Source of the DNA: a virus
Lineage: Duplodnaviria; Heunggongvirae; Uroviricota; Caudoviricetes
Virus record (IMG/VR): IMGVR_UViG_2522572021_000009
Length of the DNA: 47,236 nucleotides
Direction: 5' to 3' (one strand)
How positions within the stretch are numbered: the stretch's first letter is position 1; each line of letters begins with the position of its first letter. Shown piece after piece: positions 21,001 to 27,000 of the stretch. A program made the position numbers.

Positions 21001-24000
21001 TATCGGTGATATCCCGCCCCGGTGAACTCTCGACCAGGGTCATCCCCGAGGACATAAAGGTGGTGGTACGCTTTGAGGCCAGCGTGAAGGCATCCCCTTC
21101 CCCGTCCACGTTTTCAGGGAAACGGTCATAATCCGTCAGCGCCACACGACGGTAATCCGAAGAGGAAAAGACGGTGATCGACGGCCAGCCAATCTTCAGG
21201 AAGGAGCCGTCAAGAAACATTTTATCGTGGACGTTGTTGTCATTACGGGAAGGACTGAGGCGCTTGCTGACCTCCGGACTGTGGCGAAACGTCCTGGAAA
21301 GACGCGTTCTGGAATGCTCACGCGCCTTCGTCTCAGTCATCTGCACCACCAGCATATCCGCCGGATCACAGATGATGCCGTACACAATCCAGCCATCAAT
21401 CAGCCCTTCGGTTTTCCCGGTTCGCGCAGGTCCCACAAACACCACCGCGTCATATTCACGGGCTGATAATGTATTAATGGGGTCAATCATATAGGGCGTC
21501 AGCGATGACTCCCACGGACCGGAAGTATTGGCTCCCCGTGGAACCCGCATATAACGCCTGATGGCTTCCGCTACTGGTAACCGGCTGGGTGGGCGAAACA
21601 GCGAGGCCACTTCGCGCCAGATATCGGATGCGCGGCTATGGCTCTCGTTCACCTGATTCACATATCGGCCTCATCACAACAGTCAATGACTGCCTTTTCC
21701 AGTGTGTCGCGGATCTCATCAACCACAATCTGTACTTCATTCAGTTGTGATGCGGTCCACCCCCTGTCCCTCTCCAGCCGGTCAGGCCAGGTTTCCAGTA
21801 CCTGAACTATCGCTTTCACCACGACAGAAAAGGACCGCCTGACATCACTGACTGGCACAAGCTGACCAGTTTCCTGCTCAAATTTCAGTCGGTCACGTTC
21901 TGACTGGTACCATGCTTTACGCGCATGAGGATCCATTTCCTCGTTATCTACAGGCAGAGGAGCTTTCATCAGCTCGGCAAGGATATCTGTCAGTCGGTAC
22001 AGTTTGAGATTGCTCTCATGACCACCGGCTGGGCTTATGTTTTTTACCCGAGCCGCAACAGTCTGTCGATGAGCACCGGATAATGCGGCCAGTTGGGAAA
22101 TATTCAGATGCAGATTTTTTAATTCACGATCCATAACTCCCCCTGAAAATTATGTAAACACACACCAGTGATGAACAAAAAACAACCAGATTCGACACTA
22201 AAAATTTTTATTTTTCTATATATCAATAACTTACACTGGTGGTGATGGTGCCATAAAAATCAAAAAATGCGCCTTTTTCCGCGCCGCCCGCCCCGTGTTC
22301 AGGCCCACCCCACCAGGAGGACCCGCAAAATGATAATGGTTATCATTTGTAATGTAGTCCGGTTTCTTCCACCATCGCACCGGACCAGCGACTATGAGGG
22401 GACAACGCCGCGCTCCGTTAACGCGGTAAACCCCGGTGTGTATCGTTTTTGATTATCCCCGCACACTCGCGCAGAGGAGTCTCCCTGTCGGGCTGCGGTC
22501 TCTGTTAATGAGGGAATACAGCGACGATACGGCGCATCCGCAAAACTTAGTTCAGGCACTGAGTGCGGATATAGTCCTGTGCCCCTTCCAGCTGCTTCTG
22601 CATTGTCATCAACCGTTCTCTGAGGATGAAATAATCCCGTTCAGCGGTGTCTGCCAGTCGGGGGCCGGTTGCATTATCCACGCCGGAGGTGCCGGTGGCT
22701 TCACGCACGGTACCGGAGCAGGTGGCGTTGATCCGCAGGCGCTTACGACCAGCGGCAACATCAGCACGCAGAGTTTCATTTTCAGCTCTCGCATCGGCTA
22801 ATTCCCTCGAGTATTTTGCATCGAGCGCAGCAACATCGCGCTGGCGCACCTGCATATCAGTAATGGTTGCGTTTGCCTGCTCCAGCTCTCTGGCTTTTTT
22901 ATCGCGCTGCGCTTTGTAGGTGATGGCGTTATCGCGGTAATGATTCAGCCCCAGACTAAGCGCACCACAGGCCACCAGCAGGGCAATGATGACCACACAC
23001 AGAACGCGGTTCATTTCACCACCAGCGTATCTGACCGATGAAATAACCGGAGGCCATAATCACAAACACCAGCCAGATAAGGATGAACTTCCAGGTGGAT
23101 AATTTTTCAGCCATCACTCGAATCTCCCGAATCAGTTTGCTAAAATCAAACACACTTTCTCCTTTGACTTTTCCGAAGTCAGGAAACACAAAACCCCGCT
23201 TGCTGCCAACAAACGGGGTTTTTACTTTTATTCACTTAGGTTTTGCCAGTTCGCAGGATTTCGTGTTATCCGTCCGCGTTGGCCAACGTCATTTTTCAGC
23301 AAAATATTCGGCTTATCTGTCGATTCCCCAGCACGCCAGCGCGCTCTCCTGGTCACGACGGGATACCTGACCATAACAGTTATTTGAGCGGATACGGCAG
23401 TCTCTGCCACCGTCCTTAATCCACCAGCGAATCGCTTCACACGCTCCTCTGCGATCGCCTGCATTAATTCGTTTATAAAACGTCGACGGGAAACACTTAC
23501 CGGGGCCAATGTTGTAAGGACAGAATGACGCAATACCCGCTTTCTGGGGTTCAGTCAGTGGCACTTTGATGTTTTTCTCCACCCATGCCAGCGCCTTATC
23601 ACGCTCAATGGCGTTAACCTGGTCGCATTTTTTCTTCGACAACTTCATGCCCGGGACGACAGGTTTGCCATCCACCCTGGTGGCACCACGACAAATGGTC
23701 CAGATACCCGCACCATCACGGTATGCCGTGGTGTGGTTACCTTCTTTTTCATCCAGAAACTGGTCGAGAATATCAGGCGCAGGCGCCCCTGCGGCAATCA
23801 GCGCCAGAACGGCAGCCGACAGGCCGTATTTGATTTTGGTGTTCATGGATATTTATCAGGATTTATCGGTTCCGAATCCCTGGATATGTTAAGCCTTCAC
23901 CCCACCAGTGGTGGGCACTGGCGGGTTCTTAATTTCCCCGGATGATCGTGGATTACATTCCACCAGGAGATTACTTATGCTTATCTATCCAGCGGCAGAC

Positions 24001-27000
24001 CTCCGTTTACAGGGACGCAGAGCACAACCATGGGATAAAACAACCACTCATAAATATCGTCCCGGTCAATATTATGACTTTCGTAAACACCCGGAACTGA
24101 TCGAGACACACCTTGAGGATTTTGTTGAATATTCAGACAGACAAGCGATTCAGACCTTTTTTTCTTTTGTTAAGTGGATCAACAGCAATTCATCTGCATT
24201 CGAGAGCACGGACTGCATGTTTTCAGGAACACCAAAGGTTGATGAATACGCCCCGGTATTTGGTTGCACCCATGCGTCATCTGGCCGCTTCGAATTTTTG
24301 TTTCGCGATACGAAAATAAACCAAAATGAGCGAGCTGTCGGATGGGTACTTAACAAACTATCGCTCTACCTTCAGAAAGAACGGCCCGATTTTTGTAAAG
24401 GAACCTTTGGCATCGTTCCCCTCATGACGGAATATACCGACTCCGGCGGTAACGAGTTCACCGGTTATCGTATTTGTGTCTATTTCGATGCTTACGGGAA
24501 TGGAACAGAGGATACCTGGACTTCTCTCAACATCATGTTTGATGGCCTCATGAAAGCCACCAAAAGAATGAGCAATGAAACAATCACTGGCGAGATGCGT
24601 CCCCTTTAAAAAATTATCCAGAATCTCACTATTTGCAGAGCGCTCTCTGTTTTTTTGAATACGGAAACACTCTGCGAGATTTCTGCTCATCACTTTCCGG
24701 CAATAATCGTAAAACGCCGCGAACTGCTCATCACGGCGTTTTTTTTCACCTTCGGAAGGGATCTGCACCGACAGTTTTTTATTCAGTTCAACGACGCTGT
24801 TCTCCAGTTTTTCAATGCGTGATTCGATATCATCTTTTTCTGACTGTATCGTGTTATATGCATTGTTAATTTGTATGGTATACCGCTCTTCTGAACAGAG
24901 GCGCTTTTCCGGCAACGGTTCGTTCCCTTCACATAACCCGGCAGCAATATCCATGAAAAACTGCTTCGCCTTCTTTTTCGCCTCAGCTTCGTAAAACTCC
25001 AGCGGGGCACCTTCAACACGATCAAGATCAATCACCACATTTGGCAACAACAGTGACGTATACCCACCAGTTTCCAGCGCCACAGTAACAGTAATCTTAT
25101 CCGGGTAAATATTTATCCCTTTAACAACCAGTTCGTATTGTTTATTCATCGTCTACTCTCCCCGCGCCGCCTTACGACGGTCCTCTCTGATTTTGAAATA
25201 CAGGTTAGTAAGATACGTCAGCAGGCCAAACAGCAGACTCCCCAGCACACCTATCGCCACCCACTGGGACGGAGAGACTTTGTCCAGCAGCTGCAGTAAC
25301 CAGTATCCCGTCCCCACCGCTGACGTGGTGTATGACACACCTGTTGTGATTTTTTCCATCTGGTACATACCCCGTCTCCCGCAATCCGGAAGCTCACAAC
25401 AATAAAAAAGACCACCGGCACACACCGATGGTCCCTGACGCATGCTTACATCATCATGTCGCTGTCCGGTGTGGGGTCACCGCTATCTGAAGCACTCCCC
25501 TCACCCGCGATGCCTTCCGGCTCCGGAGCTGCCGGTGCGCCCAGCAGTTCATCCAGAATGGCATCCACTTCTGCATCAAGACGCGCTTCCAGGTTATGGC
25601 GAAGTTTCTGTTTCAGTGCGCTCCGGACTTCTTCAGAGCGCAGGACTTCCTTCACTGCTTCAGCAGTGACCAGGGATGTAATTTCTGACATGGGATTTTC
25701 TCGTCGAAAGATGTGATTAAGAAAGTTGCCGCTAAATGAGCGGCTCTTCGGGTTTGCTTCCGGCTGACTGACTGGCGCTGATTTTCTCAGCGGCCCTTTT
25801 GTCAATCTGTCTGCGCCAGAAGTCACGCATGGCCCTGTACCCACCCGAAAGGAGATACAGCACACAGACCACCGTACAGAAGTACAGCATTAACTGGTTT
25901 AGAAATGTCATAATTTCTTTCCGTTATTGTTGACAATAAGAACTGTTTTCATTTAAAAAACCAGAGCACGAAAGTATCGTTCCTTTATTTTTTCTCCATA
26001 GGTATTACCACCGCCAGCGTCCATTCCTGTCGCTGGCGGTTTTTTTTATCATGCCGCAGTGTCTGTGCTGTTCACTTCCACCGCAATGCTGTCTATCAGT
26101 ACCGGGTAAGTCGCATTCCTGGTAATGTCTGTCACATGCAGTTTATCCGCCGCAAATGCACTGACCGGTGACTGCGTCAGCGTGAACGGTGTGCCATCCT
26201 GACCATCAATAACCGGCGTCACCTGAAGGCTGTTATTCCCGGCAAAGCGGAAAGCCAGCGTATGCCATTCGTTATCAAATGCGCCAAAGGTTCCCAGTTT
26301 CAGGTTGTTTGTCGCCACTTTCGCATTGTGGTACATCACATTCAGGTCTTTTGCATCTGTCTGGATGTAGAACGCTGCCAGCAGGTTATTCCCCCCGTCT
26401 CCGGTCAGGGCAACGCCCTGTGGCAGTGAAGAGACCGGCCAGTAAAACGCCATAACATACTGGTTCGCAGCCAGCGCTCCCGAAACCTTAAAGCGGCAGC
26501 GAATCTGCCCCCCTTTCTGTAACAGAGCCGCACCGTTGCCCGCGGCGTACTCCAGCACCCAGCTGCTTTTACCGGCCTCCTTGGTCAGCTTCACTGCCTT
26601 ACCTCCGGTTCCCTCCGCATCGCTGACCACTTCTGCCCTGCCGCCACTGGCTGACCATCCCTGTACTTTCAGGCTTCCCTCTGACTCGCTGGCAAGGTAA
26701 GAGAGCAGTGTTGTGACGCCTGTGGCTTCTGCACCGGAAGGCGATGAAGGGCGCACCTCTGATACTGTCGATGATGCCCCCGCGTTTAGCGCCACTCTTC
26801 CCGCATGGCGCAAAATCGCCGTTGCCAGACGGTCGGAAATAATCCCACGGCGTGCCCAGGCGCTGAAATGGCTCGCCCTGTCCTGTGACGTCCAGGTGGC
26901 TGAGCTGTCACGCCATTTCGAACCGTAATATCCGATACCCGGAATGTCCGGGTCTTCTTCCGGTTTGTTCGTCGGCACATTCACCCCGTTCTCATCGGTC

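Follow-up and report, generated by a model that had tools for sequence, protein, structure and literature searches.

The viral record IMGVR_UViG_2522572021_000009 (Caudoviricetes; 47,236 nucleotides (nt), hereafter the window) matches, at 100% identity, a lambdoid prophage that adjoins rspB in Escherichia coli O145:H28 RM13514. Its late operon is read from the minus strand and carries, between the holin gene (S) and the endolysin gene (R), two overlapping reading frames on opposite strands, namely a 210-amino-acid (aa) plus-strand gene, referred to as gene A, and a minus-strand frame, referred to as B, which in the window forms the C-terminal part of a 263-aa open reading frame (ORF; 24358..25149). 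A gap of 1,306 bp separates the holin stop (25153) from the endolysin start (23846). An earlier note, made from the sequence alone, had described a separation of 1.3 kb, a 263-aa minus-strand gene coupled to the holin stop, a 210-aa plus-strand gene with its own ribosome-binding site, a palindrome CCCACCA-g-TGGTGGG at 23901..23915 and a convergent overlap of about 250 bp. All of these were found, the ATG of the minus-strand ORF lying 3 nt past the holin stop (with GGGGAGAG within the 3' end of the holin gene), the AGGAG of gene A lying 7 nt upstream of its ATG, and the overlap measuring 252 bp (24358..24609). The same note had taken S and R to be adjacent in cassettes of the S21/R21 type and the interval between them to be inserted cargo. 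Adjacency does not apply to this phage group, as the Qin prophage of E. coli K-12 has the gene order essQ-ydfR-rrrQ, with a DUF1327/YdfR gene between S and R. In addition, part of the S-R interval has a match in 1,401 of the 5,426 complete genomes of E. coli, which indicates, together with the Qin order, that a gene at this place is normal in the group. The idea of inserted cargo, lying opposite to the late operon and having its own ribosome-binding site and a terminator-like hairpin, was borne out for only 800 bp of the interval (23853..24652).

The remainder of the interval belongs mainly to the resident late gene. Its product starts with a DUF1327/YdfR-family core, consisting of an N-terminal DUF1327 domain, a coiled-coil segment and a conserved motif (KKRRDEQFAAFYDYCRKVMSRNLAECF). 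The match to PF07041 (DUF1327) covers aa 1-96 with 116.3 bits (gathering cut-off 25; E=7.5e-34), so that the claim that neither protein belonged to a recognised family stands for the plus-strand protein and falls for the minus-strand one. PHROG profiles reach only aa 1 to about 170 of the 263-aa ORF, with phrog_2091 spanning aa 1-168. BLASTP aligns the window protein with K-12 YdfR at 38% identity (E=3e-20), and the two share the domain, the late strand and the place between an S21-type holin and an endolysin; K-12 YdfR is 103 aa long, whereas the window protein adds the coiled coil and the conserved motif and has its C-terminus swapped for the B moiety. The first 72 residues of K-12 YdfR bind RNase E's catalytic domain, and YdfR co-purifies RNA (PMC13232886). 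By analogy, the 38%-identical YdfR moiety of the window protein may add RNase E binding. Alignment of the family revealed a common core up to '...SRNLAECF' (aa 162), followed by one of three C-termini. These are a short end in proteins of 169-183 aa ('...VKIFEEGKSLQ'), a 125-aa domain in proteins of 287-296 aa, and the 101-aa tail of the window, which occurs behind N-terminal variants in proteins of 263, 305 and 161 aa and is identical among its carriers, save one substitution in the 161-aa variant. Neither the short nor the long family-typical C-terminus is present in the window protein, which diverges after '...AECF'. Homology between its tail and the long-form C-domain was rejected (hhalign probability 0.06%), their '...YLKV..' endings being only superficially alike in a MAFFT alignment.

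The 800-bp cassette that carries gene A and the B frame is absent from two otherwise collinear loci (L011 and L012) and stands in for 397 bp coding for the C-terminal domain of the long-form (287-aa) DUF1327 proteins. Its GC (guanine plus cytosine) fraction is 0.45, compared with 0.53-0.56 for S, R and Rz. Of the 5,426 E. coli genomes, 133 contained the cargo-specific 730 bp, with 200 copies in all and an identity of at least 99% in 132 of the carriers, which are mostly E. coli that produce Shiga toxin (STEC); among 50,697 phage records, just 8 contained it. The same slot is filled by other small opposite-strand genes, namely an 86-aa gene in PhiR12 phages and the 104-aa orf6 of Stx2 phage 86; the label 'DUF1823' given to the 86-aa cargo in PhiR12 records was rejected, as it has no Pfam support. 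Upstream of gene A, a block TATCAGGAT-N22-TATGTT was found once in the window, against zero matches expected. This block and the hairpin region that follows it (23854..23922) are common to the 210-, 86- and 104-aa cargos of the S-R slot, and the block is also present upstream of gene A homologues in the slot between tail genes I and J. The block may represent a 'socket' for recombination or a promoter/operator module that is portable. An inverted repeat CTGAT-N5-ATCAG overlaps it in the I-J loci. Of the hairpins in the 5' untranslated region, the palindrome is not kept in sister loci, whereas the overlapping CCAGTG/CACTGG hairpin is; the consensus stem has 7 bp, three of them with compensatory changes, which, with just seven sequences, is weak evidence.

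Downstream of gene A, the right cassette edge bears a proximal terminator-like hairpin of low strength (dG -7.1 kcal/mol, z -0.9). A stronger one had been described in the earlier note as a terminator accompanying the cargo and falling inside the minus-strand ORF. The hairpin is real and folds on either strand (plus, -14 kcal/mol; minus, -18.9 kcal/mol), but it belongs to the resident DUF1327 gene and not to the cargo. Indeed, it encodes KKRRDEQFAAF, the most conserved peptide of the DUF1327 core, and the loci with the 86-aa cargo share the window sequence from 24700 onward, which places the hairpin about 20 nt past the stop of the 86-aa gene (by transfer of coordinates from the window). Its location in the conserved core and its presence in the 86-aa-cargo loci indicate a slot-level terminator, likely acting as a back-stop for whichever convergent cargo fills the slot, in which case coding and terminator functions would share one sequence. 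For both hairpins, the role as the cargo's own terminator, as expected of a moron (an extra gene with its own signals), is a sequence-level prediction. The coordinates of all features are listed in Table 1.

Table 1. Features of the S-R interval of the window and its surroundings, with the corresponding upstream signals in four other loci.
Feature	Position	Strand	Basis
Class II (pin)holin of the S21 type, heading the lysis cassette	25153..25368	-	PF04971, E=1e-32
DUF1327/YdfR-family core, aa 1-162	24664..25149	-	PF07041, phrog_2091, family alignment
Gene-B-derived tail of the 263-aa ORF, 101 aa + stop	24358..24663	-	alignment with stand-alone B
A/B cassette, 800 bp	23853..24652		blastn against L011: homology only at 25408..24653 and 23852..23200
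Upstream block TATCAGGAT-N22-TATGTT (-10-like TATGTT), candidate promoter/operator of gene A	23854..23890	+	conservation
Hairpin region of the 5' untranslated region: palindrome (23901-23915) and CCAGTG/CACTGG stem (23905-23921)	23901..23925	+	minimum-free-energy fold
Shine-Dalgarno site AGGAG of gene A, 7 nt 5' of ATG	23965..23969	+	sequence
Gene A, 210-aa soluble alpha/beta protein, undescribed family	23977..24609	+	homologues, profile, AlphaFold2
Proximal terminator-like hairpin + T7 of gene A, right cassette edge	24635..24657	+	terminator scan
Stronger hairpin + U8 inside the DUF1327 coding sequence	24712..24746	+	RNA dG -14 kcal/mol, z -2.9
Endolysin R, signal-arrest-release (SAR) type	23313..23846	-	PF00959, E=3e-25; N-terminus MNTKIKYGLSAAVLALIAAGAPAP
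Spanin Rz	22547..23014	-	PF03245, E=2.1e-50
Rz1, lipoprotein ORF embedded in Rz	22609..22794	-	ORF read from sequence
Upstream block + hairpin, locus L015	2055..2123
Upstream block + hairpin, locus L016	2055..2125
Upstream block + hairpin, locus L009	587..623
Upstream block + hairpin, locus L010	517..553

Judged by its conservation, gene A is a real gene. Full-length homologues with 53-65% identity were retrieved from Salmonella, Morganella and Kosakonia/Enterobacter, and the range across several genera was 37-65%; every homologue starts at the Met encoded at 23977 (not 23978), and homologues have AAGGA or AGGAG at the equivalent place. Substitutions follow the plus frame (third codon position more than first, first more than second), the overlap included. 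A profile search gave 251 representative clusters, nearly all of them single-domain proteins of about 200-220 aa. Remote-homology searching and structure prediction of the plus-strand protein, proposed as checks in the earlier note, yielded a confident AlphaFold2 model (69 sequences; pLDDT 93, pTM 0.90) and no recognisable family or clear structural relative. In particular, gene A and 69 family members had no credible match in Pfam, NCBIfam, PHROG or PADLOC, a search of PDB sequences with the A profile gave no match, and a fold search with the A model gave no informative one. Similarly, a comparison of A, the 263-aa ORF and the 69 family members with known anti-phage systems (PADLOC-DB v2) revealed no credible match. 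Two motifs, LEDF and ES(T/N)DC, and nearly invariant polar residues (R15, E47, D48, E76, D79, R104, R110 and N115, numbered as in the window protein) stand out in the family alignment, which suggests an active or binding site. The possibility that A is an effector of a type III secretion system was dropped, as the protein is without secretion-signal features and the family occurs in bacteria without such a system and in environmental bacteria.

In the Enterobacterales, gene A is always an opposite-strand moron. It occupies the S-R interval in the window, a pre-holin position in a P22-like Salmonella prophage and a position next to sodC, while the tail I-J slot holds it in 15 of 17 divergent IMG/VR loci; in the more distant phage-borne clades it is found between tail genes K and I, or I and J. 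In the P22-like Salmonella prophage (L007, 9618..11257), the A homologue lies just 5' of the holin gene, in the accessory region between Q and the holin gene, about 3 kb from a Kiwa (KwaA/KwaB) defence system. One I-J-slot phage (L009) carries an Ail/Lom-like moron (2030..2452) 5' of tail gene I, and another locus (L010) has a minus-strand hairpin with T7 (about 470..500) between the A cassette and the start of J. At 25-34% identity, distant A homologues are found in environmental bacteria as ordinary genes of the chromosome; guilt by association failed for them, as neither a conserved neighbour nor a paralogue was found. Gene A is annotated in none of the records inspected, for which the Prokaryotic Genome Annotation Pipeline (PGAP) calls the antisense ORF or a pseudogene instead. 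A plus-strand fragment is called only where A is frameshifted. This is the case for E. coli ECA64 (L024, 1555..1896), in which a 1-bp deletion cuts gene A to 113 aa and PGAP annotates a plus-strand coding sequence, indicating that the intact gene is masked by its antisense ORF. Among the sampled members of the NCBI clusters, the E. coli A protein occurs only as 'partial' entries or short fragments.

The frame antisense to gene A behaves as a gene of its own in related phages. When antisense stops were counted as TTA, CTA and TCA codons in the A frame, 14 of 16 distinct enterobacterial A sequences had 5-15 of them in codons 1-128 and none thereafter, the last one always falling at the complement of the conserved Leu127/128 of A. 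Upon synonymous-codon shuffling, the probability of such an open frame ranged per lineage from 2e-5 to 0.054, and over the related sequences taken together the pattern goes far past chance. Where A occupies the tail slot, the B frame follows immediately on the upstream late gene and opens with an ATG that a Shine-Dalgarno site precedes. This ATG is found 5-8 codons past the A stop for the closer enterobacterial clade and 10-12 codons past it for two more distant clades; the stand-alone protein measures 89-90 aa (six lineages) or 95-107 aa (the latter two clades). ATG, Shine-Dalgarno site, length and stop (opposite Leu127/128 of A, or codon 114 or 121 in the P0128-type clade) are conserved in 12 sequences from three clades, the carriers including phages of Morganella and Kosakonia, and B overlaps the last 83 or so codons of A.

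Moreover, the synonymous sites of A reflect this second frame. Among the lineages with intact B, synonymous divergence of A (Nei-Gojobori counting) was 0.47-0.69, mostly about 0.48, in the overlap and 0.78-0.95 upstream of it (z 2.5-6.2), whereas non-synonymous divergence was equal inside and outside the overlap, so that recombination is excluded as the cause. In three independent pairs (140 and 188 sites), the proportion of differences at sites synonymous in A yet non-synonymous in B was 0.52 in the overlap and 0.84 elsewhere. The P0128-type clade replicated the synonymous drop, including unsaturated pairs (0.19-0.24 versus 0.42-0.44). As a control, two Salmonella copies with an interrupted or truncated B displayed no drop (0.73 versus 0.76); lineages in which one frame has been lost thus provide a natural internal control. 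Non-phage A homologues with informative codon usage contain antisense stops in the tail. Based on these comparisons, stand-alone B of the related phages is with good confidence a real gene, and since the antisense frame is there a separate gene with its own ATG and Shine-Dalgarno site, the overlap looks dual-coding, with the B frame under purifying selection. This contradicts the expectation of the earlier note that one of the two C-termini would be shorter than called, B being a separate gene of 89-107 aa in those phages. Most likely, B arose by overprinting within the phage-borne branch of an older A family.

In the window, B is present as the tail of the 263-aa ORF, antisense to and codon-aligned with the last 83 codons of A, and it is 33-53% identical to the stand-alone B proteins of 89-90 aa. 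The fusion joint follows '...AECF' and consists of an 18-aa linker encoded by the cassette. We lean towards the reading that the resident YdfR/DUF1327 gene of the S-R interval had its C-terminal domain replaced by a two-gene A/B moron, the likeliest role of which is that of a pair with lysogeny-ON/lysis-OFF expression. Gene A would be read against the Q-dependent late operon, from the lysogen while the late operon is silent. Its expression in the lysogen is expected because of its opposite orientation, its own conserved upstream block and the one or two terminators of the hairpin/T-run type. B would be made here only as the C-terminal 101 aa of the YdfR-B fusion. Upon induction, late transcription would start from pR', and the Q-modified polymerase would cross S, YdfR-B, the antisense strand of A, and R, thereby yielding the B moiety and possibly countering A through transcriptional interference and antisense RNA, by analogy with the tai/ati pair of phage phi80. 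Gene A may encode a prophage-expressed, host-protective activity, with anti-phage defence as a first guess, and B may be its late-phase antagonist or partner, the overlap keeping both genetically inseparable. The defence role is itself a guess, drawn from moron logic and one Kiwa-adjacent context. Alternatively, a stress or metabolic role of A (as with sodC) is possible, since the A family also occurs in non-mobile chromosomal contexts.

In phi80, taiEcA runs antisense to the Q operon in which it lies, next to atiEcA, a small late gene; TaiEcA is produced constitutively, lowered when Q is expressed and neutralised by atiEcA (PMC11364771). Both systems comprise a moron gene of about 200 aa that is antisense inside a Q-controlled late operon and interlocked with a small partner on the late strand, and this Tai-like layout, with an antisense gene in the Q late operon and a small late gene, was found in the window and in 24 IMG/VR loci. 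In phi80, the antisense gene is lysogen-expressed and lowered by late transcription, whereas for A/B both properties are predicted from sequence. Furthermore, tai and ati overlap by only about 20 nt at their 5' ends, and A and B by about 250 nt at their 3' ends. Homology was rejected, with hhalign probabilities of 0.25% for A versus TaiEcA and 0.34% for B versus AtiEcA; the likeness is hence one of design and not of membership. A more far-reaching proposal, namely that A/B is an unrecognised and widely mobile two-protein module of temperate phages in which A represents a new prophage-expressed defence- or toxin-like family and B an antidote born de novo by overprinting, captured in STEC prophages as one domain of a YdfR-type late protein that binds RNase E, is considered quite unlikely; if true, the overlap would enforce linkage and reciprocal expression, with lysogeny giving A and lysis giving B.

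Several observations weigh against a lysogeny/lysis pair. Nothing found links A to defence, be it PADLOC, Tai homology or the contexts of distant homologues. A consensus sigma-70 scan of 23300..25500 did not find a promoter. Frameshifts annotated by PGAP in gpJ (3831..7306) and in the prohead protease/major capsid fusion (15859..17837) indicate that the late operon of the host prophage may be dead. In the phage database, relatives of B were found only in A-bearing DNA, a search with 10 B proteins gave no match in the family libraries, the B profile had no match among PDB sequences, and the conservation of B partly mirrors that of A (e.g., GPFYL versus ERPDF). Further points suggest that only gene A matters in the window, the 263-aa ORF being a truncated DUF1327 pseudogene with a tail that is accidental read-through or a relic of B. 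In the PGAP annotation, 23847..24900 contains no feature and just the first 83 aa (24901..25149) are called, as a DUF1327 pseudogene 'missing C-terminus', which also holds for O26:H11 11368. The tail is fused in frame to the DUF1327 core instead of opening with a start codon, and it differs from B at five nearly invariant positions. Synonymous-codon shuffling of the window sequence by itself gives P = 0.054 for the antisense frame being open across the last 82 codons of A, and window-versus-Salmonella pairs exhibit no drop in the proportion of synonymous differences (0.71-0.81 versus 0.78-0.82). Among the aligned fusion variants, the tail is near-identical (one substitution) and hence carries no within-species information. 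Yet, the open frame ends precisely where the ancestral B stop lies and its joint to the core preserves the reading frame, at least three different N-terminal variants have retained this tail, and the divergence from intact-B lineages at A-synonymous/B-nonsynonymous sites is lower in the window (0.59) than in the Salmonella copies (0.72). On this measure, the window lineage shows intermediate B constraint. A pseudogene with an accidental or relic tail therefore seems somewhat unlikely to us, and the chances that the fused tail is functional in the window appear evenly balanced.

Two other explanations concern the meaning of the frames themselves. Translation of the B frame might serve only to hold ribosomes on the late mRNA while it spans the antisense cargo, avoiding Rho-dependent polarity on J or R, or the region might be an RNA element, the sequence of B being irrelevant in either case. 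This would fit with the location of B, which is always on the late-operon strand, directly after an upstream late gene and with a Shine-Dalgarno site, and with its lack of homologues beyond A-bearing DNA and of a recognisable domain. Openness alone would not, however, roughly halve the substitutions at all A-synonymous sites, B spans only about 270 of the about 800 nt of antisense cargo, and a search of 23300..25500 against Rfam gave no match. In phage lambda, Q-modified polymerase is already resistant to termination, which also counts against ribosome loading, and we regard this explanation as very unlikely. Gene A could, in turn, be spurious and the 263-aa minus-strand protein the sole gene, as all eight GenBank phage records annotate the minus-strand ORF only and the RefSeq genomes inspected do likewise. 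This deserves next to no credence and is refuted by comparative sequence data, given the full-length A homologues down to 25% identity in unrelated genomes without the minus-strand ORF, the substitution pattern of a plus frame and the confident predicted fold.

The architecture of the A/B cassette as such is not new, the S-R interval being a known moron/YdfR slot in which convergent gene pairs are already annotated in Stx2 phage 86 and PhiR12 phages. What appears new is a conserved and unannotated protein family without known relatives (A), a replicated comparative signal for an antisense region of about 250 nt that looks dual-coding across phage clades, and the apparent capture of B as a domain fusion in STEC prophages. 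Gene A is a conserved gene in about 2.5% of the complete E. coli genomes, mostly STEC (O26, O145, O157, O103 and O111), that is omitted from the RefSeq records inspected; gene callers prefer the longer antisense ORF or call a pseudogene. If A and B act like Tai and Ati, they would constitute a new prophage-encoded immunity family, in which overprinting hard-wires a defence gene to a self-immunity gene. The holin-endolysin interval, for its part, can be seen as a cassette-exchange socket, in which at least three different antisense cargo genes would be served by one common upstream block and by a terminator within the YdfR coding sequence.

Compared with lambdoid morons of the classical type (bor and lom of lambda, HK97 gp15 and Gifsy sodC), which are extra genes with deviating GC and their own signals, inserted between genes that are adjacent in relatives and often against late transcription, A shares the slots (I-J, the lysis region and next to sodC). 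Those morons are single genes, whereas the A cassette has a second gene overprinted on the antisense strand. Similarly, Rz/Rz1 of the same lysis cassette represents two proteins from one stretch of the lysis region, with Rz1 on the same strand as Rz in the +1 frame, whereas A and B are on opposite strands. Long, non-trivial antisense overlapping genes have reportedly been found in enterohaemorrhagic E. coli and Pseudomonas (laoB, ano and asa; olg1/olg2; nog1 and pop) and are said to be suppressed by annotation pipelines, to be known mainly from ribosome profiling of one strain and to be taxonomically young. Compared with these, A/B is known from sequence alone, but displays conservation across genera, with a conserved start and Shine-Dalgarno site, and adds a signal at synonymous sites that was replicated and comes with an internal control, the loss of B. 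The locus is therefore one of the better comparative cases for long antisense dual coding in bacteria and phages, and the disputed functionality of antisense overlapping genes can be tested here by mutations that are silent in one frame.

As to the wider prophage, Q (30121..30501) heads the order of the late genes and is followed by a DNA methyltransferase gene, a nanS-p-type esterase gene (26049..27995), DUF1378, DUF826, the holin gene and the S-R interval, after which come the endolysin gene, Rz/Rz1, and the terminase, head and tail genes. The holin is 79% identical to K-12 EssQ and is named 'class II holin family protein' by PGAP. On the minus strand, a strong hairpin of terminator type, with 13 pairs and a T-run, separates DUF826 from the start of the holin gene (25407..25436), resembling the read-through terminators of Q-dependent late operons. 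The DNA methyltransferase gene (28499..29557) fills the interval between Q and nanS-p, where Stx phages have stx; the prophage is a non-Stx relative of Stx phages, with a nanS-p-type esterase of 648 aa. A third PGAP frameshift affects nleC (1..992), and the prophage is probably defective, yet the A/B cassette is intact. The early region contains a Ser/Thr protein kinase and PP2C phosphatase pair (32995..34489, plus strand) and a Hok/Gef toxin gene (32429..32584, minus strand), and a NirD/YgiW/YdeI stress-protein moron is located at 31965..32309; these represent additional lysogen-expressed accessory genes of the prophage.

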